From the NCBI RefSeq assembly GCF_000011805.1, contig NC_006841.2: a DNA stretch of 32,000 bases, one strand, 5' to 3'. The translations under genes and the position numbers were made by a program. Under the pieces are notes generated by a model, which saw only the letters and a program-made list of their open reading frames with translations, was not told the origin of the DNA and did not search any database. This document shows, piece after piece, positions 15,385 through 26,234 of the stretch. How positions within the stretch are numbered: position 1 is the stretch's first letter; each line of letters starts with the position of its first letter. This DNA comes from Aliivibrio fischeri ES114. Lineage in GTDB: Bacteria; Pseudomonadota; Gammaproteobacteria; Enterobacterales; Vibrionaceae.

Positions 15385-15545
15385 ACATAATATGAACCAA
15401 CTTCGTATCTGACTCAAACTCTTGCAAGCTCTCACAGTGGCGCGCCCGTTACGGATTCTCACCGTATTCCGAAGTAATCTTCATTGTACGATGCTATGTT
15501 GAGATATTCTATCTATAACCCTGAAAACATGGGATTAATTAGAGA
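15385..15545 (-). promoter_or_regulatory. Cobalamin (B12) riboswitch
   Basis: The minus strand reads CUUCGGAAUACGGUGAGAAUCCGUAACGGGCGCGCCACUGUGAGAGC (plus-strand 15428-15474), matching the conserved GGUG-AAUCC...CCCGCCACUGU core. A B12-box-like GAGUCAGAUACGAAG follows (plus-strand 15401-15415). The outer boundaries are approximate. Confidence 0.7.
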
Positions 15546-15601
15546 TACCCCATACAACGTGATAAAATTCATCACCTCTTTAATCAACAAAGTAATTAAT
15601 T

Positions 15602-16138
15602 ATGGCACTTAAAGCATCTGGAAATATTGGTGAACTTTCATACCCATTCATTTTTGAAGACAGCCCATTATGCGACTTTGAAATCTTAACGGATGAATTA
15701 TGTGCCTATACTGGCTTAGCGTTATCACAAATAACTAATCAAGAAGTCCGTGAATCGCTAGAACGTCTACAACCAAAAATATTTCACCTTAATGGCTCGA
15801 TTCGTGGGAAATGTGGCATCTTTGAGCAGGACGTTCAAGAACTCGTGTCTGAAATGTTTTACTTTAAAGAACAAGTTCATGACAAAGGTAAGCGCTTTGT
15901 TCTTCCTCGTGGAGCCGGCCCTGTAATTCAACTTCATCAATGCCGTAGCTTAAGTAAAAAAGTGGTTCGCGCCTTAGTCCTAATTGACAAATTAACCAAT
16001 AAAACCATCCCAGAAACACTTCCTCGTTTTGCAAATGCGCTCGCTAATTATTATTTCGTGCTTACACGAGTACTAAATCAAGACATGAACATTGATGAAC
16101 CTGAATATATAAGCATTAACTATCCAAAGCCTGAATAA
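15602..16138 (+). CDS. ATP:cob(I)alamin adenosyltransferase, PduO-type (probable)
   Basis: Three PduO-family blocks are matched: SGNIGELS (TGDKGETS), FEILTDELCAYTGLA (EAYGTVDELNSxIGLA) and FVLPRGAGPVIQLHQCRSLSKKVVRALV (FILPGG..A..LHxAR...RRAER). Its position next to a B12 riboswitch supports the call. Confidence 0.6.
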   Translation: MALKASGNIGELSYPFIFEDSPLCDFEILTDELCAYTGLALSQITNQEVRESLERLQPKIFHLNGSIRGKCGIFEQDVQELVSEMFYFKEQVHDKGKRFVLPRGAGPVIQLHQCRSLSKKVVRALVLIDKLTNKTIPETLPRFANALANYYFVLTRVLNQDMNIDEPEYISINYPKPE

Positions 16139-16362
16139 ATCAAATATTATGTAAATACATCGTTAAGTGAATTATGAAAAAGAATATTAATAATAGGAAC
16201 TATAATATTCTCTTTCATTATCAATGGTAGTAACACGATACAGGTCAATGCAACTCTATTTATAGCCTTTAATTATATTGATAGCGAACCTCATATATTA
16301 TAAAGTCCACCTCAATTGTTACAGTCATGCAATAAATGACTTTTTTGTTAAACTTAGGTTAA

Positions 16363-17964
16363 TTGATTAAAGTGATTACATTTGGTAAGTCCAATAAATT
16401 ATTTTTTTGGCCACGCTTTATCGTTTTATTTACAATATTAAATATCTTGTTATTTTCAGTATTTTATTTTTACAAATACTCACAAAACCAGATAGAGATA
16501 AGTAAAATAAAATCAGAACAAAGTGCTCTAATTTCAGCACAAAAAAAATACATTGCAATGACCCTAAACAGCATAGGGCAAGATTTACTGCTGCTTTCTG
16601 ATTTCATTGAAATTAACAAAGCATACCAAAAGCACGAACGTAAACTCATTAAACTAGCTGAAATGAACACGCTCGCTCTGAGCTTACGTAAAGGACTTTA
16701 TGATCAATTAAGATACCTTGATCTTGAAGGTAATGAGCTCATTCGTATTAACTATAATAATGGCATTCCAAGTGTTGTTACAGGAAATGAATTACAAAAT
16801 AAATTTGACCGTTATTATTTTCAAGACAGCTTATCTTTAAATGATGGGGATATTTACGTTTCTATTTTAGATTTAAATATTGAGCATGGTGAAATCGAAG
16901 AACCTTATAAACCTATGATTCGTCTAGCTACGCCTGTATATGATGATCAGGGAAATAAAAGAGGTATCGTTATATTAAATTACCTTGCAGCGCATTTATT
17001 AGATGGTCTAAAACTATTTTCTTTGGATAAAAGAAACCATCACATGCTAATAAACAGTAATAATTACTTTTTATTTTATGATAAAAGACCAGACCTTGAA
17101 TTTGCTTTCATGTTTAATGAAGACGAAAGTAAAACCTATCCTGCGATTTACCCAATAACTTATTCTTGTATTGAGAAAGAACCTAAAGGTCAATATGAAA
17201 TAGGTTCAGGAATTTTAACGTTCGATTCTGTATTTGCTTATCCAAAAAATTTAGATTCAGCAAAATCAGTCAAAATTGTTAAAAAAGACTCATGCTGGCG
17301 CTTAATCACTTTTGTTCCTAATTACCCTAAGTGGTCAATTGAGCGAATCTCAAGCAGTGAGATAATTCTTGTTGGTTGTTTTATTTTACTTTCTTTCATT
17401 GTATCGCTGGTTATAACTCAATTACAGCTAAAGAAAAAAATTGATCACAACGAAATAAAGAAATTAGCTCACCACGATAGTCTGACAGGCCTAATCAACC
17501 GTGGATACTTTAAAAAACTGTTTCATTGGAAAATGCAAAAAGCACGAAAAAATGAAACTAAATTAGCTTTGATCTACATTGATTTAGATGGATTTAAAGA
17601 TCTCAATGACAACTTTGGCCACAGTGCTGGTGATTTGGCATTAAAGGCAGTAGCTCGAAATCTATACAGCACTTTCTCAGAAAATAGTTACGTCGCTCGA
17701 TTAGGTGGTGATGAATTTGCCGTACTTATTCATACCGTTATTGATGAAGAAGAGATATTTGCTCTTGTTGAGGAATTTTTAGAAAGTAGTAATACTCCAT
17801 TAATGCTTGAAGATATTCCATATCAACTAAGCACGAGTATTGGCTTAGCTTTCTTCCCTGAACATGGTCGCTCCATTAACGAGTTAATGCATAATGCCGA
17901 TGCGGCAATGTATGACATCAAACGCTCAGGAAAGAATGGATTTAAAGTATTTGAAAAGCTATGA
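16363..17964 (+). CDS. Membrane-bound diguanylate cyclase (GGDEF) with a large periplasmic sensor domain
   Basis: Two TM segments (about residues 15-37 and 333-355) bracket a domain of about 295 aa. The C-terminal GGDEF domain carries RLGGDEFAV. No RxxD I-site is present at the usual offset. The start is non-ATG (TTG 16363 or GTG 16372). Confidence 0.85.
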   Translation: MIKVITFGKSNKLFFWPRFIVLFTILNILLFSVFYFYKYSQNQIEISKIKSEQSALISAQKKYIAMTLNSIGQDLLLLSDFIEINKAYQKHERKLIKLAEMNTLALSLRKGLYDQLRYLDLEGNELIRINYNNGIPSVVTGNELQNKFDRYYFQDSLSLNDGDIYVSILDLNIEHGEIEEPYKPMIRLATPVYDDQGNKRGIVILNYLAAHLLDGLKLFSLDKRNHHMLINSNNYFLFYDKRPDLEFAFMFNEDESKTYPAIYPITYSCIEKEPKGQYEIGSGILTFDSVFAYPKNLDSAKSVKIVKKDSCWRLITFVPNYPKWSIERISSSEIILVGCFILLSFIVSLVITQLQLKKKIDHNEIKKLAHHDSLTGLINRGYFKKLFHWKMQKARKNETKLALIYIDLDGFKDLNDNFGHSAGDLALKAVARNLYSTFSENSYVARLGGDEFAVLIHTVIDEEEIFALVEEFLESSNTPLMLEDIPYQLSTSIGLAFFPEHGRSINELMHNADAAMYDIKRSGKNGFKVFEKL

Positions 17965-20154: not shown

Positions 20155-20365
20155 AAGCTACATCAAGAAGCACGAAAAGTTCCCTAAAATCACCCCTCAT
20201 AAATGCAAAGTATGACTACCAAATTTGGTACTGACATTACTAAAGATTAGTGGAATATTAAATCTTACTTACTTTCTAGGTCAGTAATGAAAGTAATTAC
20301 AAGATGATAATGAAGATTAAAAACAACAGCGCGAAACACTGTTTGCTAATAAATGAGGTGTCACA

Positions 20366-20977
20366 ATGAAAAAATATATTCCTGTTCTATTTGCTCTAAG
20401 TGCTGTATCTGGTGTTAGTTATGCAGGTACAACAAAACAAAGTGATTCTGTTAATTACTTACAAATGCGTAATGGCATTGCCTATCAAGTAAACCAAGAG
20501 ACACCTTATACAGGGAAATTTGTTCAAAAATACGATAACGGACAAATCTCAACAAAAGCTCAATTCAAAGATGGCGTTGAAATTGGTACAGAAAGTAATT
20601 GGTATCCAAATGGCCAAATGGCTTCAAAACTTAATTATAAAGATGGCAAGCTTGATGGTTTAATGCAAACTTGGTACGTGAATGGTCAGAAAAAAACAGA
20701 ATTCACGTATAAAAATAATCAGTTAGATGGCCAAGCAACACGTTGGTATGACAATGGTGAAAAAAATCTAACCGTTAATTACGATAATGGCCAAAAAGAT
20801 GGCCTATACACCAGCTACTACGCTAATGGTAAAAAAGCCACTCAAGCAAATTACGACGATGGCAAAATCAAAGATGGCTCAGTTACCCAATGGAATAATC
20901 ATGGTGACAAAGTAGAGCAATTAACCTTCAAAAACCAAAAAGTCGTGTCAGAGCAAACATGGATGCCAGAGAGTTAA
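20366..20977 (+). CDS. Secreted MORN-variant repeat protein (YwqK-like)
   Basis: A signal peptide (MKKYIPVLFALSAVSGVSYA) is followed by about six tandem repeats of about 23 aa with the pattern W/Y-Y-x-N-G-x-K/x...Y-K/D-x-G-x-x-D-G. A gaggtg SD is present. Confidence 0.8.
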   Translation: MKKYIPVLFALSAVSGVSYAGTTKQSDSVNYLQMRNGIAYQVNQETPYTGKFVQKYDNGQISTKAQFKDGVEIGTESNWYPNGQMASKLNYKDGKLDGLMQTWYVNGQKKTEFTYKNNQLDGQATRWYDNGEKNLTVNYDNGQKDGLYTSYYANGKKATQANYDDGKIKDGSVTQWNNHGDKVEQLTFKNQKVVSEQTWMPES

Positions 20978-21138
20978 TGCTGTTTGTAGTAAGATTCTAT
21001 CGTAAATAATACTATTAAATATTAGAGTTGTCTTATTTATATTAGTTTGTTTAAACAATCAACATATCACGTCGAAAATGAAATAAAAAGACGTAATTAA
21101 ATTCCAAAATCAATTTATTACACTTAAATAAATAAAAC

Positions 21139-21177
21139 GATGAGCACGTACTATATTTATAATAATACATGCTCATC
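21139..21177. repeat. Inverted repeat (11/12 bp arms) upstream of the Mor-like gene
   Basis: gatgagcacgta (21139-21150) and tacatgctcatc (21166-21177) are separated by a 15-nt AT spacer. The repeat lies about 105 bp upstream of the ATG at 21283. Confidence 0.4.
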
Positions 21178-21282
21178 AATTGGAGAGCATTGCTAATAGG
21201 GAAATACTTCCTCATAGCCATTATTACTGTAAACTGATTTGATTACACCTCCTTATTAATCCCCTAAAAAAAGGAGTAAATA

Positions 21283-21666
21283 ATGCAGAAAAAAAGTAAT
21301 GATCTCATTAAACAATATCTATTAAATACAAATGTCGAAACACTACCAAAACAGCTAAAAGAATTGGTTGAACTAATTGGACCAATTGATACATATATAT
21401 TTATTAGCCACTACGGAGGGCAAATAAAATACATAGCAAAAAATCCATCAAGAACAAAAATGAAACATATAATGAACGAAAAAGCACTTAAACATCTGTG
21501 TGCCAATTACGGAGGGTCAACAATCGAAGTACCAAAACAAGAACATTTAGAGCGGCAAATTAGAAATAAATTAATAAAAAATGCGAGTATGAAAGGTATT
21601 TCACGCTCACAATTAGCGACTCAATTCAATCTAAGCGTTAGGCATATCGGTAATATAAAAAAATAG
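21283..21666 (+). CDS. Mor/C-family (phage Mu middle/late activator-like) transcriptional regulator
   Basis: The 127-aa protein compares with Mu Mor at 129 aa. ANYGGSTIEVPKQEHLERQIRNKLIKNASMKGISRSQLATQFNLSVRHIGNIKK aligns with Mor HLGGGQVYIPRGQALDSLIRDLRIWNDFNGRNVSELTTRYGVTFNTVYKAIRR. A strong aaggag SD is present. Confidence 0.7.
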   Translation: MQKKSNDLIKQYLLNTNVETLPKQLKELVELIGPIDTYIFISHYGGQIKYIAKNPSRTKMKHIMNEKALKHLCANYGGSTIEVPKQEHLERQIRNKLIKNASMKGISRSQLATQFNLSVRHIGNIKK

Positions 21667-21670
21667 CGGT

Positions 21671-21701
21671 TTTAGGGGGAAGTCATATCATTCCCCCTAA
21701 A
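21671..21701 (-). terminator. Hairpin between the convergent Mor-like gene and the minus-strand operon
   Basis: ttagggggaa (21672-21681) pairs with ttccccctaa (21691-21700). On the minus strand a T7 run follows 7 nt later, which is non-canonical spacing. Confidence 0.45.
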
Positions 21702-21704
21702 TAG

Positions 21705-21977
21705 TTAAAGTACAGGTTTTCTTTTAAATCCTATATGATAAGCAACATGTTGAGATATAACTGTATTTTCTCCTATTTTTATCACTTTAAATCCAGAATC
21801 TTTACCAATCAAAATACCTTTAGGGTGAATATCTAAGTAATGATTCAATTTATCTATTTGTCGTTGCATAAAATCATCATCATCAGGATTGTTGGGGTTA
21901 TAACGACCAATAACTATCCGTTCGATATAACGAACATCCGTTAAATCTAAAACAGAGGAGTTCCTATCTGATAGCAT
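21705..21977 (-). CDS. Hypothetical 90-aa protein, third gene of the islet minus-strand operon
   Basis: The ORF starts 20 bp after the upstream gene, with an aagg SD. It has an acidic patch (NPNNPDDDDF) and a beta-rich C-terminus. I recognise no family. Confidence 0.6.
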   Translation of the reverse strand: MLSDRNSSVLDLTDVRYIERIVIGRYNPNNPDDDDFMQRQIDKLNHYLDIHPKGILIGKDSGFKVIKIGENTVISQHVAYHIGFKRKPVL

Positions 21978-21997
21978 ATTTTATTGCCTTATTTTAT

Positions 21998-22849
21998 TTA
22001 TGCAGCACTCTTACTTTCTTTTATATTTGCATCTTTTTCATCTTGCAAGGCCATATTTGCTTGTTGTAACTCTATTTCAGCATCTACAACCGCTATATTT
22101 GATTCATTTACCTTTTTTTCTAATTCACTTGTATCACTTTTCGGGTTCTTTAACTTACTTTGTTCTAGTTTCATTTGCTGTAAAGTCAAATCAGCTTTAG
22201 CCTTGGCTACTTTTTTTCGAGCCTGAGCGACTGCAATTGCACGCTGACCACTCGCCTTCACCTTACCGGAGCGCTCAATAGACTTTGGTGCAACTGACCC
22301 TCCTATAATATCTAATACACGCATCAATCCCTCAGGAGTTCCAGATTGTGATGCATGCACAGCAACATGATATTTGGCAGAATTATCGCTTGATCGAGTA
22401 TTTTCTTTATGTGATGCAACACTTCCTGAAACACTAGCAGTCAAACTAAAAGGTCCCCAACCAACAGATGCTTTAGCTGAAAATTCTCCTTTTTTATCTT
22501 CTGTTTCATGATAAGTTTCTGATGACTTAACTTCCATATCAAATGTAATATCAACCTCATCAACCATTAAACTTGGTACATTTACAATCGCAAGAACAGG
22601 AACTTCTAAACCCACTTTTTCTTGTTCAATAATATCATTATCTAAACCATCCTTGCCTGTAACCACATTTCGTACATACGAAAAATCCGCCGTTCGTGTT
22701 TTTGCACCATCAAAACCAACATTCTGAATAAAATCAACAGTCGAACGTGCTAACATAATTTGTGAGTCACATGCTGCTTTTAAAGGTGAACCAATTAAAC
22801 TTTCCATTGGTAAACCTGAAAATTGATTTTGCATACTTTCTAAAGCCAT
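21998..22849 (-). CDS. Unknown-function protein, long paralogue (DUF2589-like from memory) with a coiled-coil tail
   Basis: 283-aa protein with an aggaaa SD. It contains GLPMESLIGSPLKAACDSQ and VGLEVPVLAIVNVPSLMVDEVDITFDMEV blocks and an amphipathic hairpin FSAKASVGWGPFSLTASVSGSVAS. Residues about 200-283 form a Lys/Glu/Ala/Gln-rich heptad-like tail. Confidence 0.8.
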   Translation of the reverse strand: MALESMQNQFSGLPMESLIGSPLKAACDSQIMLARSTVDFIQNVGFDGAKTRTADFSYVRNVVTGKDGLDNDIIEQEKVGLEVPVLAIVNVPSLMVDEVDITFDMEVKSSETYHETEDKKGEFSAKASVGWGPFSLTASVSGSVASHKENTRSSDNSAKYHVAVHASQSGTPEGLMRVLDIIGGSVAPKSIERSGKVKASGQRAIAVAQARKKVAKAKADLTLQQMKLEQSKLKNPKSDTSELEKKVNESNIAVVDAEIELQQANMALQDEKDANIKESKSAA

Positions 22850-22864
22850 ATTAATTTCCTTTAT

Positions 22865-23413
22865 TTAATGTGAAGTATTAACTTCGGGAGGTGTCATCTC
22901 TGATGACGAATCTGAAACAATTTTTTTAGGTATAATTTGAGTATTAAATTTATCTATAATTTTCATCACACACTCAGGAGCGTCACTTGATTTAAATTTC
23001 ACTTTAAAATCAATAAAATCCTTATTTATTTCACCTTTATTTCGATGACTTGGTGAAATATCTACAATTAATTTTGGATATTTATCTTTAAAATCTTGCT
23101 GTAAATTATCAGTATCAACACCAGTGACTCGAACTGAAAAATCAACACCTAATTCATCAAGATAAAGGCCTTTCGCATCTGTAACTGCGATTAAAGGCAT
23201 AGTTATTTCATGCTCATCATCTAGCATTAACTTGATTGTTTTTGGTTTATATGTGCATTTTTCTTCATCATAATCAAAATATTGTGAAATTAAGTTTTGA
23301 TAGTGAGATAAATTCATATCACTTGCGCTATTAGCTACATAATTTAAACCTCTTATAATTCCATCTAAAAACTGTGGTGAAATCGGTTTATTATTTCTTC
23401 CAAAAATATTCAT
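22865..23413 (-). CDS. Unknown-function protein, short paralogue (DUF2589-like from memory)
   Basis: 182-aa first gene of the operon. It shares three blocks with the downstream gene: HEITMPLIAVTDAKGLYLDELGVDFSVRV, the N-terminal LDGIIRGLNYVANSA, and the C-terminal APECVMKIIDKF. Confidence 0.8.
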   Translation of the reverse strand: MNIFGRNNKPISPQFLDGIIRGLNYVANSASDMNLSHYQNLISQYFDYDEEKCTYKPKTIKLMLDDEHEITMPLIAVTDAKGLYLDELGVDFSVRVTGVDTDNLQQDFKDKYPKLIVDISPSHRNKGEINKDFIDFKVKFKSSDAPECVMKIIDKFNTQIIPKKIVSDSSSEMTPPEVNTSH

Positions 23414-23422
23414 AACATAACC

Positions 23423-23452
23423 TTTATTATTAAATGATGAGAAAATAATAAA
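23423..23452. repeat. Perfect 9-bp inverted repeat in the divergent control region of the islet
   Basis: tttattatt (23423-23431) and aataataaa (23444-23452) flank the 12-nt spacer aaatgatgagaa. The arms are AT-only, so statistical weight is low. Confidence 0.3.
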
Positions 23453-23474
23453 CCATATAATTTTATAAAATAAT

Positions 23475-24932
23475 ATGGAAATAATTCCAAATACTAAAAA
23501 AATTAAAAAAGTACATTTTAGTCAACAAATAAATAATAAGAGTAACTTTATGCTAAAATTAACAAATTTATTCGCTTTTTTATTATTGACACTTGTAATC
23601 ACTACAATCAGTCAATTTATTTTTGTTCCAGAGATAATATATTTAAGTAGTACTAATAATAAATCTAATAAAAATACGTTAGAAAAGATAAAAAAGAGAG
23701 GTTTTTTATTAGTTGCAACAAAGCTTGATGGTGTTGGTTGTTACTATAAACGAGGACAACTTAGAGGTATTGAATGTGAATTATTACAAGAATATGCTAA
23801 CTATCTTGATGTTGAATTAAACATTCTTTTTTTTCCAGACTTACATAGTCTTTTTACGGCATTAGACAATAAAAGGGTTGATATTATAGCTTCAGATCTC
23901 ACACCAAACAATGAACGTAAAAAAAAATTCTTGTTTTCTAATGCATTATTTCATACTGAAGAATGGCTAATACAAAGAAAAGACAACGCTATATCAAATT
24001 TAAAGCAATTAAATGGAAAAACAATTTCTATAAGAAAAGGAACTACTTATAAGGATGTGATCTTAACATTACAACAGGAAATGAACATAAATATTAAAAT
24101 AGAATTACTTCCCGAAACCCTATCAACATTAGAAATCATTAAAGGTGTTGCGAATAGTATTTGGAGCTACACCTTAGCAGATCAACACATTGCACAAAAT
24201 CAACATGCACAATATCCCCAATTAAGCCCACCATTAACAATAGGGCAACCACGAGAAATTAGTCTAGCTTTATTCAAAGATGATAAAGAATTATTATTAC
24301 ACTTAAATTCTTGGCTAGCGAATAAAAAAGCTAAGGATATCCTTAATAAAAAAAATAGAACTGATATAAAAAAACAATATTTAATCACACCTTGGGACAA
24401 TATATTCAAAAAGAATGCTTCTCAACCATTTGATTGGTTATGGTTAACTTCACAGGCTTTCGCTGAATCTTCATTTGATCCAAATGCAATCTCCTCCTCT
24501 GGTGCAAAAGGATTAATGCAATTAATGCCAGAAACAGCGAAAGATATGGGTGTAACGCAATTATTTGATCCAAATGAAAATATTAAAGGTGGCGCAAAAT
24601 ATAATAAATGGCTGTATAAAACCTATTGGAATTATTTACCAGAAAAAGAAGCTCTTGCCTTTACGTTTGCATCTTATAATGCTGGTGTTGGACATATAAT
24701 AGATGCACAAAGATTAGCTTTAAGAAACGGAGATGATCCAAACGTTTGGTTTAATAGTGTTGAAAACCATATTATCAAACTAGAAAAAAAATCCATATTT
24801 ACTCTACCATATATTAAATATGGTTACTGTAGAGGTAGTGAAACCAAATCTTATGTTAGAAAAATCTTTTTTCAAAAAAGAATATATTCTAATAATAAAG
24901 CCCTATTAAATAAACAACATCTAAATAATTAA
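23475..24932 (+). CDS. MltF-like membrane-bound lytic murein transglycosylase (SBP_bac_3-like domain plus SLT domain)
   Basis: The N-terminal domain is collinear with E. coli MltF: IKKRGFLLVAT, GIECELLQEYANYLDVELNI, LFTALDNKRVDIIASDLTPNNERKKKF. The SLT catalytic block is SQAFAESSFDPNAISSSGAKGLMQLMPETAKDMGV, with the Glu codon at 24465..24467. The hydrophobic anchor is LFAFLLLTLVITTISQFIF. The start is either 23475 or, more plausibly, 23550 (MLKLTN). Confidence 0.85.
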   Translation: MEIIPNTKKIKKVHFSQQINNKSNFMLKLTNLFAFLLLTLVITTISQFIFVPEIIYLSSTNNKSNKNTLEKIKKRGFLLVATKLDGVGCYYKRGQLRGIECELLQEYANYLDVELNILFFPDLHSLFTALDNKRVDIIASDLTPNNERKKKFLFSNALFHTEEWLIQRKDNAISNLKQLNGKTISIRKGTTYKDVILTLQQEMNINIKIELLPETLSTLEIIKGVANSIWSYTLADQHIAQNQHAQYPQLSPPLTIGQPREISLALFKDDKELLLHLNSWLANKKAKDILNKKNRTDIKKQYLITPWDNIFKKNASQPFDWLWLTSQAFAESSFDPNAISSSGAKGLMQLMPETAKDMGVTQLFDPNENIKGGAKYNKWLYKTYWNYLPEKEALAFTFASYNAGVGHIIDAQRLALRNGDDPNVWFNSVENHIIKLEKKSIFTLPYIKYGYCRGSETKSYVRKIFFQKRIYSNNKALLNKQHLNN

Positions 24933-24943
24933 GAAGTCATCAT

Positions 24944-26161
24944 ATGAAAAAATATATAACTATTTTATTATTCCCTATGTTTTTATTAATCTCTGGTTGT
25001 TCAGAACAAAAAAAACATTGTGATATTTTTAACGCAGACACCAGTCATATGTCAGAAATTTACAAACACTATTTATTAAAAAAACAGAAAATTGAGCCTC
25101 TATATGAATTAAGAGTCATCGAAATAGATGAAAAAGGATTATTTTTAGAACGCTATAAATTTAATGAATTGAAAAAATACATTAAACAAAAGACACAAAT
25201 AAAAGACACGTTAATTTATATTAAAATAAATGGATGGCAGCATGACACCAGTATTGATGAACTTAGTCTTAATAATTTTAAAAAGCAACTTAATAACATA
25301 AGTAACTACGTCTCAAAAAACAAAAGAGATGTCATTGGAATTTATGTGAAATTAAGAGAAGAAAAAACATCCATGTTTAGATATCTTACATTTTTTAATA
25401 AAAAAAAATCTATCCATCAAGTTTCTAATGGAAATATCATAGAAATATGGAATTTTCTCAAAAAGATAAAAGATAACAGCGTTTCAGATACAAAAATAGT
25501 AACAGTAGGCCATAGCTTTGGAGCAGATATAATATTTAATTTAATGAATATTGACAATAGAGCAGAGTCAAATGAAAATCATAAATATAAAAAAAACTTA
25601 TCAGGTATAGGTAACCTGATACTATTAATCAACCCAACATTTGATGCATTAAAATATGTTGAATTTAGAAAAAGCAATAATAACAAAGAACCTTCAAGTA
25701 AAAACAATCCTATTATATCTATTTTTACATCAGAATCTGACTGGATAACTAAATATGTGCTTCCAGCAGAACGTATCATTAGTAATCTATTTAAGCAACA
25801 TAATTACATGGAGGCGACAATAGGAGAAAACAAAGTATTAATCAATAAAAAAATAGCACAAATAACAAGCATTGGGCATTTTAAACCTTTTATTACCCAT
25901 AGACTTGAAATGACAAACAAAAGTATCAGTTCAACACAATATAATAAACTAATAAAAAATTTAAAATCTGATTTGGTCAATGGAATAAATCCACTTAATT
26001 TCGACAAAACCATATTAGTAAGAAATCCAATAATAAAAGCTAACACCCCTTACTTAGTTGTTCAAGTCGATAAAACTTTGATACCAGACCATAGCAACAT
26101 TTTTGGTAAAGAAATTGAAACATTTTTTCATGACTTTTTATTGCTTTCTATCAATGAATAA
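24944..26161 (+). CDS. Lipoprotein alpha/beta-hydrolase (putative esterase/lipase, Ser-Asp-His)
   Basis: Lipobox LLISGC (Cys19) with Ser at +2. The nucleophile elbow is VTVGHSFGADI (Ser191, codon 25514..25516). The candidate acid is SESDW (D266) and the candidate His is PDHSN (H383). The gene starts 11 bp after the MltF-like gene. Confidence 0.75.
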   Translation: MKKYITILLFPMFLLISGCSEQKKHCDIFNADTSHMSEIYKHYLLKKQKIEPLYELRVIEIDEKGLFLERYKFNELKKYIKQKTQIKDTLIYIKINGWQHDTSIDELSLNNFKKQLNNISNYVSKNKRDVIGIYVKLREEKTSMFRYLTFFNKKKSIHQVSNGNIIEIWNFLKKIKDNSVSDTKIVTVGHSFGADIIFNLMNIDNRAESNENHKYKKNLSGIGNLILLINPTFDALKYVEFRKSNNNKEPSSKNNPIISIFTSESDWITKYVLPAERIISNLFKQHNYMEATIGENKVLINKKIAQITSIGHFKPFITHRLEMTNKSISSTQYNKLIKNLKSDLVNGINPLNFDKTILVRNPIIKANTPYLVVQVDKTLIPDHSNIFGKEIETFFHDFLLLSINE

Positions 26162-26190
26162 ATCCAAACAAAAAAAGTTGTATTATGAAT

Positions 26191-26218
26191 AAAAAGGCAC
26201 TCAATAAAGTGCCTTTTT
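26191..26218. terminator. Bidirectional rho-independent terminator at the right edge of the islet
   Basis: aaaaaggcac (26191-26200) pairs with gtgccttttt (26209-26218) across an 8-nt loop. A- and T-runs on both sides serve the convergent genes. Confidence 0.8.
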
Positions 26219-26234
26219 ATTAACCTATTTTCAA

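Follow-up and report, generated by a model that had tools for sequence, protein, structure and literature searches.

Among the closest described relatives, in organisation, of the locus analysed here are holin/endolysin and type 10 secretion systems (T10SS), such as Serratia ChiWXYZ, Salmonella TtsA, the Yersinia Tc-toxin release system and C. difficile TcdE/TcdL. Endolysins usually have no N-terminal export signal, and enzymes of this type need a membrane lesion to reach the cell wall. That domesticated holin/endolysin cassettes can release signal-less proteins is an established precedent (PMC10847048, PMC10109510). Here, we have analysed a stretch of 32,000 nucleotides (the window) of Aliivibrio fischeri ES114 (assembly GCF_000011805.1, contig NC_006841.2), in which two adjacent genes encode products of 182 and 283 residues, the short and the long paralogue of the family DUF2589 (PF11655), for which the Pfam text gives only a domain of unknown function. 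We show that the two genes form, together with a third gene that we call c1, a conserved and horizontally mobile module (the triad) beside which stand interchangeable degradative enzymes, and we argue that the triad could act as the membrane-breaching core of a lysis or release cassette.

That the two products are related had been suggested in a preliminary description, made from the DNA letters and their open reading frames, which noticed three collinear blocks shared by both. The similarity is significant: BLASTP aligned the two products over 111 residues at 22% identity (E=3e-6), covering the central and C-terminal blocks, and all three blocks fall in common columns of an alignment of 77 sequences from both subfamilies. 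Eight columns are invariant in both (G20, P84, L94, F103, P172, E173, D180 and P188 in the numbering of the long form). The resemblance to DUF2589 that the description had suggested was borne out as well. Both proteins are full-length members of PF11655: against a curated gathering threshold of 23 bits, the short form scores 129 bits (E=2.5e-37, model positions 1-154) and the long form, through its residues 14-183, scores 178 bits (E=2.1e-52, model positions 1-152). NCBI already annotates both window proteins as DUF2589, with AAW88052.1 being identical to the 283-residue product. Within this family, the two forms are genuine distant paralogues and may form a hetero-oligomer, as the description proposed. 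The spacing of 15 bp with a Shine-Dalgarno sequence is also as first described. Both genes lie on the minus strand, and the spacer ataaaggaaattaat, which holds the Shine-Dalgarno sequence, lies between the TAA of the short gene and the ATG of the long gene.

The operon of the window reads short-long-c1. The c1 gene starts 20 nt downstream of the long gene with its own AAGG site, and its product carries the conserved motif GEHQVVxQxxxYHxGFxRKP. We surveyed 80 genome loci from many phyla with 10-kb flanks, in which the short form was sought by a locally iterated profile. A short-form gene was present in 79 of the 80 loci, usually directly upstream of the long form and on the same strand, and clustering of the neighbouring genes placed c1 in 80 of 81 sequences (the window and 79 loci). 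The sole locus without the short form and c1 is a contig that ends 140 bp upstream of the match. The order of the triad was reproduced by independent gene calls with precomputed Pfam annotation. Such near-universal co-occurrence of a short and a long form is in keeping with the suggested hetero-oligomer and supports it indirectly. In the preliminary description the pair was taken as the core of the operon; both genes do belong to it, but the conserved unit is the triad, which includes the unrelated 90-residue c1, and the pair alone is not the whole core.

The three proteins evolve at different rates, with a median pairwise identity across loci of 52% for the long form, 49% for c1 and 25.5% for the short form. 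The long form has at least 2,482 homologues, which are 50-57% identical across phyla and range over Vibrionaceae, Xanthomonadales, Burkholderiales, Myxococcota, Fibrobacterota, Negativicutes and Clostridia. For c1 we found at least 1,058 homologues; those that are named are all called 'hypothetical', and none of them has a Pfam domain. Searches with c1 itself gave no match in Pfam, NCBIfam, PHROG, PADLOC or the PDB, and the idea that c1 is a remote DUF2589 paralogue was ruled out by profile-profile comparison (hhalign probability 0.2%). The short form is a fast-evolving subfamily, for which a word-indexed search returned 25 relatives and an exhaustive search 179 representative clusters, most of them 25-35% identical. 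The proposal of a duplicated pair holds in so far as the two are diverged paralogues, but a recent duplication is wrong, as the split into a short and a long subfamily is older than the spread of the module across phyla. About 24 loci have a third and weaker DUF2589-like gene, and some loci have three or more tandem paralogues, e.g. three genes in Fibrobacterota (L010/L164).

The main functional clue, which the preliminary description missed, is the company of enzymes that the triad keeps. At least nine non-homologous families of peptidoglycan hydrolases take the same position beside it. The recurrent ones are Glyco_hydro_108 with PG_binding_3 (GH108; Xanthomonas, Luteibacter, Rhodanobacter and Roseateles), Glyco_hydro_19 (GH19; Oxalobacteraceae, Paraburkholderia, Pseudomonas and Cystobacter), CHAP (Lachnospiraceae and Eubacterium) and SLT (Vibrionaceae, including the MltF-like gene of the window). 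Others are confined to single lineages: a T6SS_VgrG3-like_C muramidase, a PF11860 muramidase with PG_binding_1, PG_binding_1 plus a pesticin-like lysozyme, an Rv2525c-like glycosidase and, in Bacteroides, Glyco_hydro_25. Further neighbours are phospholipases or lipases (patatin, and DUF6765 with a weak match to zinc-dependent phospholipase C), nucleases (WHH/colicin-DNase and Exo_endo_phos, EEP) and a peptidase (weak matches to zincin-like metallopeptidases). In local profile searches, GH108, GH19, CHAP or SLT was found within 2 kb of the cassette at 42 of 81 loci, mostly at 4-150 bp and on the same strand; in the rest of the flank, which is about four times larger, the same four families were found at 4 loci only. 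About one third of the loci have the triad without a recognisable adjacent enzyme.

These figures bear on an alternative in which DUF2589 genes and lytic enzymes are simply fellow passengers of mobile islands, the role of the pair being unrelated. The mobile contexts (integrases, a Rep3 protein, the low-GC islet of the window), the third of loci that have no recognisable enzyme and the divergent transcription of the window's SLT gene would fit such co-travel. It would leave unexplained, however, why so many unrelated hydrolases, together with lipases and nucleases, sit in the same position, often within 4-150 bp and on the same strand, and why 42 loci have an enzyme near the cassette as against 4 farther away; moreover, endolysins usually come from phages, in which DUF2589 is hardly ever found (one of 50,697 GenBank records). 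We regard the lack of any functional link as very unlikely.

An N-terminal hydrophobic export signal was found in none of 18 GH108, 13 GH19 and 9 CHAP enzymes, nor in any of the other enzyme types except SLT; in the same test the exported proteins of the window, used as a control, were positive. The exception is formed by the SLT enzymes of Vibrionaceae, of which six of six are membrane-anchored. The triad proteins themselves have neither a transmembrane helix nor a signal peptide. Small transmembrane proteins are found in many but not all cassettes, and none is encoded in the window operon.

Could the triad instead bind the adjacent enzyme and export it as cargo into competitors or into the medium, serving in antagonism between bacteria with the short form as an effector-specific adaptor? 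Cargo effectors of the type VI secretion system (T6SS) are carried by Hcp, VgrG and PAAR. The VgrG3-C muramidase, pesticin-like lysozyme, colicin-DNase/WHH, patatin, CHAP and EEP proteins make up a classic antibacterial effector set, and they are small and signal-less; a fast-evolving short form next to a conserved long form and c1 is also what an adaptor would lead one to expect. Yet the locus maps show no conserved same-strand immunity gene after the effectors and no co-conserved secretion-system genes, and GH108 with PG_binding_3 and GH19 are plain endolysin architectures without trafficking domains. Furthermore, the module occurs in both Gram-positive and Gram-negative bacteria, and three small soluble proteins are not likely to cross both kinds of envelope. 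We consider a toxin-export module unlikely.

Strands 3 and 4 of the long form are separated by an insert of about 45 residues that the short form lacks. In the first half of this insert, GEFSAKASVGWGPFSLTASVSGSVAS, hydrophobic and polar residues alternate strictly before and after a G-P turn with a tip of W/F, as in an amphipathic beta-hairpin. Across 95 homologues the hydrophobic positions are kept, while those between them vary among S, T, K, D, E, N and H. The second half is nearly invariant (H147, N150, T151, R152, D155, N156, S157, A158, K159, Y160 and H161). The AlphaFold2 (AF2) model of the long form is of moderate quality, with a predicted local distance difference test (pLDDT) score that averages 68.7 over the whole protein and 62.6 over residues 1-200. 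An N-terminal helix of 30 residues leads into four long antiparallel strands, and these are followed by a short helix and one last strand. The hairpin is modelled at residues 125-140 with a pLDDT below 50, though it is among the best-conserved parts of the sequence. Low model confidence combined with high conservation suggests that this segment becomes structured only in an assembly or in a membrane; the conserved pattern fits a membrane-spanning hairpin and an interface strand alike. The coiled coil of about 80 residues at the C-terminus is an extension found only in long-form variants of Vibrionaceae, Aeromonas, Plesiomonas, Rheinheimera and Fibrobacterota, and most members end at about 200 residues.

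Comparison with known structures and families gave little. Foldseek searches of the PDB with either model returned no significant match (best domain-model E=0.54, TM-score about 0.1), and pore-forming toxins appeared only in non-significant rows with a root-mean-square deviation (RMSD) above 25 Å, which is not evidence of kinship. The only significant viral match was another DUF2589 protein. Sequence and profile searches of the PDB with DUF2589 and c1 were empty, and no consistent second family emerged when 120 DUF2589 and 56 c1 members were compared with Pfam at E<=10, where matches to Fil_haemagg_2 look compositional. No triad protein matched any PHROG, and none matched a holin family of Pfam. 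Among the defence models of PADLOC-DB 2.0 there was only a weak match to PbeC (E=0.004), which, like the coiled-coil matches in Foldseek, is due to the C-terminal extension. A pilin-like reading of the N-terminal helix and sheet was rejected, since the helix has no hydrophobic segment and no pilin fold was matched. Judged by these searches, the triad core has no detectable relationship to any characterised protein.

In another interpretation, the proteins self-assemble in the cytoplasm into a filament, tube or shell that stores or scaffolds the enzymes, the long form being the main subunit and the short form and c1 minor or capping ones. That the sequences are still about 50% identical between phyla suggests densely packed protein-protein interfaces, structures of this sort are often built from a major subunit and a paralogous minor one, and the low confidence of the AF2 monomer would agree with this. 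Runs of paralogues would agree too, such as the three genes of the Fibrobacterota loci mentioned above or AF0414-AF0417 of the archaeon Archaeoglobus fulgidus, four short 'DUF2589 related' genes in a row that are reported to be induced on lactate (PMC3949148). Against it, no likeness in fold to tube, shell or filament proteins was found (tube matches had E>0.5 and an RMSD above 20 Å), the very different neighbouring enzymes have no targeting peptide in common, and the specifically lytic nature of these enzymes would be left unexplained. A structural assembly of this kind seems to us highly improbable.

We propose that the triad forms the core of a cassette for regulated cell lysis or toxin release and breaches the membrane as a holin would, a reading to which we give a probability of about 0.35. 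It is favoured because the triad is the only constant partner of the enzymes, endolysin-type enzymes need a lesion, and the hairpin is conserved. On induction, the long paralogue would oligomerize and insert its amphipathic hairpin into the cytoplasmic membrane, with the short paralogue, which has no hairpin, and c1 as obligatory partners for its assembly or for holding it in check. The resulting lesion would do the job of a holin by letting the neighbouring signal-less hydrolase reach the cell wall, with lysis or leakage as the outcome. Such a cassette could serve altruistic suicide when a phage infects the cell, or it could serve the release of cell contents. Dedicated regulators that differ between lineages fit the tight control of a dangerous function: a Mor-like protein (cluster c10) adjoins the cassette in loci of Vibrionaceae, Plesiomonas and Rheinheimera, and there are REC-LuxR in Luteibacter, AraC in Pseudomonas and a MazE/AbrB-like protein in Eubacterium.

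Several points weigh against a holin-like role. Foldseek found no significant match to pore-forming toxins, gasdermins or holins, with models of moderate quality, and an amphipathic hairpin might just as well form an interface buried within an oligomer. The peptidoglycan enzyme of the window is Sec-anchored and divergently transcribed, and needs no pore; nor do nucleases and patatins, whose site of action is the cytoplasm or the inner leaflet, need a lesion. The small transmembrane proteins of many cassettes could be the true holins, and an identity of about 50% for the long form and c1 across phyla is unusual for holins. The lytic and pore-forming function is moreover deduced from sequence and genomic context. 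A more far-reaching version of the proposal is that the triad is an unrecognised membrane-breaching machine, made of soluble non-holin proteins with a new fold, spread from Firmicutes to Proteobacteria and compatible with almost any degradative partner, so that it would constitute a family for programmed lysis or protein release apart from phage holins, gasdermins and the known secretion systems. We consider this version rather doubtful.

The surroundings of the module raise the question of whether it serves in anti-phage defence. Near some cassettes there are integrases, a Rep3 initiator, subunits of type I restriction-modification systems, AAA_21/RloB and Abi_2. In three Bacteroides contigs (L161-L163), two DUF2589 genes are followed by genes for proteins of 90 and 212 residues, Glyco_hydro_25 and an integrase, with an AAA_21/RloB pair adjacent, a setting that looks like a defence or mobile island. 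In an abortive-infection system, the triad would sense infection and activate the adjacent killing effector, and DUF2589 would form no pore. A conserved core with swappable effectors (patatin, HNH-type nuclease, the transmembrane SLATT-like DUF4231, peptidase) is typical of defence systems, and the integrases, restriction-modification subunits, AAA_21/RloB and Abi_2 next to some loci, as well as the low-GC islet that holds the cassette of the window, point the same way. But apart from the weak coiled-coil-tail match no PADLOC model was matched, domains for NTP hydrolysis (NTPase), nuclease activity or nucleotide signalling are absent from the core, and the long form and c1 are far more conserved than phage-sensing proteins usually are. 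Peptidoglycan hydrolases are uncommon as defence effectors, and some viruses carry the short and long genes themselves. Abortive infection with a core that forms no pore is in our view quite unlikely.

The module is mainly chromosomal. Relatives are encoded by one of 50,697 GenBank phage records and by eight of 72,556 plasmids, and 194 contigs of IMG/VR have a relative. The near absence from GenBank phages and PHROGs rules out that the triad is a phage lysis gene. A coherent group of uncultivated viruses in IMG/VR (L084-L160, about 50% GC) carries the short and long pair, and a profile search of this group detected no c1, which counts against the holin-like reading of the whole triad; c1 may be dispensable in the viral setting. 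The viral pair follows a module that by eye looks like RecT/YqaJ, and it converges on small transmembrane proteins and on v3, a protein with a SAGCQVF motif whose homologues in crAss-like and Bacteroides phages are all 'hypothetical'. That v3 is an endolysin was not confirmed.

As to what has been published, a full-text literature search gave two incidental mentions of DUF2589 only, one of them a B. fragilis gene in a table of the meropenem response and the other the Archaeoglobus run named above, in agreement with the preliminary view that the family has no established function. The DUF2589 annotation was known, and the general logic of cassettes for lysis or conflict in which the effector can be swapped is a familiar one. 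For the subfamily split, the obligatory c1 partner and the effector association, no description was found in the literature searched.

The features of the window around the operon are collected in Table 1.

Table 1. Coordinates of the DUF2589 operon and of neighbouring features in the window (numbering from the first nucleotide of the 32,000).
Feature	Position	Strand	Basis
Mor-like transcriptional activator, 127 aa, convergent with the operon	21283-21666	+	Pfam Mor E=5e-8; phrog_836 E=3e-21
Stem-loop TTAGGGGGAA-N9-TTCCCCCTAA (GGGGGAA/TTCCCCC)	21672-21700	.	Read from sequence, just past c1 stop
c1, 90 aa, third gene of the operon, unnamed family	21705-21977	-	AAW88051.1, UniProt Q5DYU5
Long DUF2589 paralogue, 283 aa	21998-22849	-	Open reading frame; PF11655 match
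C-terminal coiled coil of the long form, residues about 200-283	21998-22250		
Amphipathic beta-hairpin insert (first half) of the long form, residues 121-146	22412-22489	-	
Spacer between short and long genes, 15 nt, with AAGGAA Shine-Dalgarno sequence	22850-22864	-	Read from sequence
Short DUF2589 paralogue, first in the operon, 182 aa	22865-23413	-	Open reading frame; PF11655 match
Palindrome CCATATAATTTTATAAAATAATATGG, 26 nt, divergent region between operon and MltF-like gene	23453-23478	.	Inverted repeat I9
MltF-like lytic transglycosylase (SBP_bac_3 + SLT), N-terminal membrane anchor	23475-24932	+	Pfam SLT E=1e-21
Predicted lipoprotein, 405 aa, LISGC lipobox, GHSFG nucleophile-elbow-like motif	24944-26161	+	Open reading frame; motif read from sequence

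The cassette sits in an islet of 26-30% GC in a genome of about 38% GC. This low-GC islet (20300-26200) holds a gene for a MORN-repeat lipoprotein, the Mor-like activator gene, the triad, the MltF-like enzyme gene and the gene for the 405-residue lipoprotein. Neither a tRNA gene nor direct repeats mark its boundaries. Aliivibrio sp. EL58 (L001) has this islet too, flanked by the same LysR and major facilitator superfamily (MFS) genes. A perfect 14-bp inverted repeat, AATAAAAAGGCACT/AGTGCCTTTTTATT (26188-26221), lies between the lipoprotein gene and the DJ-1/PfpI gene convergent with it, and is likely a bidirectional terminator that marks the right edge of the islet. A second low-GC stretch of the window (15500-17500, 30-33%) has open reading frames at 15602-16138 and 16363-17964.

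At its 3′ end, two open reading frames of 80 and 66 residues run antisense to the long gene (21984-22226 and 22000-22200, plus strand); their products would be hydrophobic and of low complexity, and they are most probably spurious reading frames of the AT-rich antisense strand. The stem-loop between the convergent c1 and Mor-like genes was not detected in a consensus terminator scan; it is probably the terminator that closes the operon. The Mor-like gene, whose PHROG family is labelled 'late transcriptional activator', is a candidate for a dedicated regulator of the cassette. A promoter scan found no sigma-70-like promoter upstream of the operon, so that an activator-dependent promoter, perhaps served by the Mor-like protein, is possible. 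The palindrome in the divergent region is a candidate operator.

The MltF-like protein matches the NCBIfam MltF model with E=4e-77, below the cut-off of that model, and its anchor is a hydrophobic N-terminal segment. In three Vibrionaceae loci (L001, L003 and L005) the cassette has an SLT homologue at a distance of no more than 150 bp, and there the gene for the 405-residue lipoprotein (cluster c33) is co-conserved with them. This lipoprotein has no significant match in Pfam; its motif suggests that it may be an alpha/beta-hydrolase, lipase or esterase, which would parallel the phospholipase neighbours elsewhere. Homology to an alpha/beta-hydrolase neighbour in Rheinheimera was not significant.

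We would like to point out what these observations mean for the family. DUF2589 has thousands of members across bacterial phyla, with relatives reported in one archaeon and no published function found. An isolated pair of such genes now becomes a defined and testable system of four parts: an invariant three-protein core, a swappable lytic or toxic enzyme, a dedicated regulator, and a candidate functional element, namely the conserved hairpin and the invariant R-x-x-D-x-S-A-K-Y motif that follows it. If the core permeabilizes membranes, it would provide a holin-independent route to regulated lysis or to the release of signal-less proteins, which would matter for abortive infection, for the liberation of toxins and DNA and for the formation of vesicles. 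Peptidoglycan fragments are signals in the squid symbiosis of A. fischeri, and the cassette could, if this is true, bear on their release in this species. As A. fischeri ES114 is genetically tractable, the prediction is directly testable.

How, then, do the DUF2589 cassettes compare with the known systems? Like the T10SS named at the outset, they are non-phage chromosomal cassettes with an endolysin-type hydrolase that has no signal peptide, and GH108 is the family of TtsA-type enzymes. They also have dedicated transcriptional control, and a membrane-permeabilizing partner is presumably needed. In the window the parallel is partial, as its SLT enzyme is membrane-anchored. Unlike in T10SS, the triad partners are not holins: there is no conserved small transmembrane protein and no PHROG or Pfam holin match. 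The adjacent enzyme may also be a nuclease, phospholipase or peptidase, and DUF2589 is almost absent from sequenced phages.

The long form can in turn be likened to beta-barrel pore formers that are synthesized as soluble precursors, i.e. the aerolysin/ETX-MTX2 family, alpha-haemolysin, the bicomponent leukocidins and the bacterial gasdermins. It differs from them in having no significant fold or sequence match and in being cytoplasmic without a secretion signal. Moreover, the hairpin is found in one DUF2589 paralogue only, and no protease or activating partner was recognised. What it shares with them is a soluble protein rich in long beta-strands, with a predicted Ser/Gly-rich amphipathic hairpin that has an aromatic tip, is conserved at the positions that would face lipid and varies among polar residues at the others, and the paralogous two-component arrangement recalls that of the bicomponent toxins.

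Finally, in contrast to conflict systems such as T6SS cargo effectors, polymorphic toxins, the cyclic-oligonucleotide-based antiphage signalling system (CBASS) and Lamassu, the DUF2589 core has no detectable domain in common with them, no NTPase or cyclase and no Hcp, VgrG or PAAR, and no immunity genes are evident. It resembles them in its overall logic, an invariant core with swappable flanking genes, and the genes beside it are those that conflict systems share, for patatin, HNH/WHH nuclease, peptidoglycan hydrolase, peptidase and transmembrane (DUF4231) proteins, in settings of the mobile or defence type.

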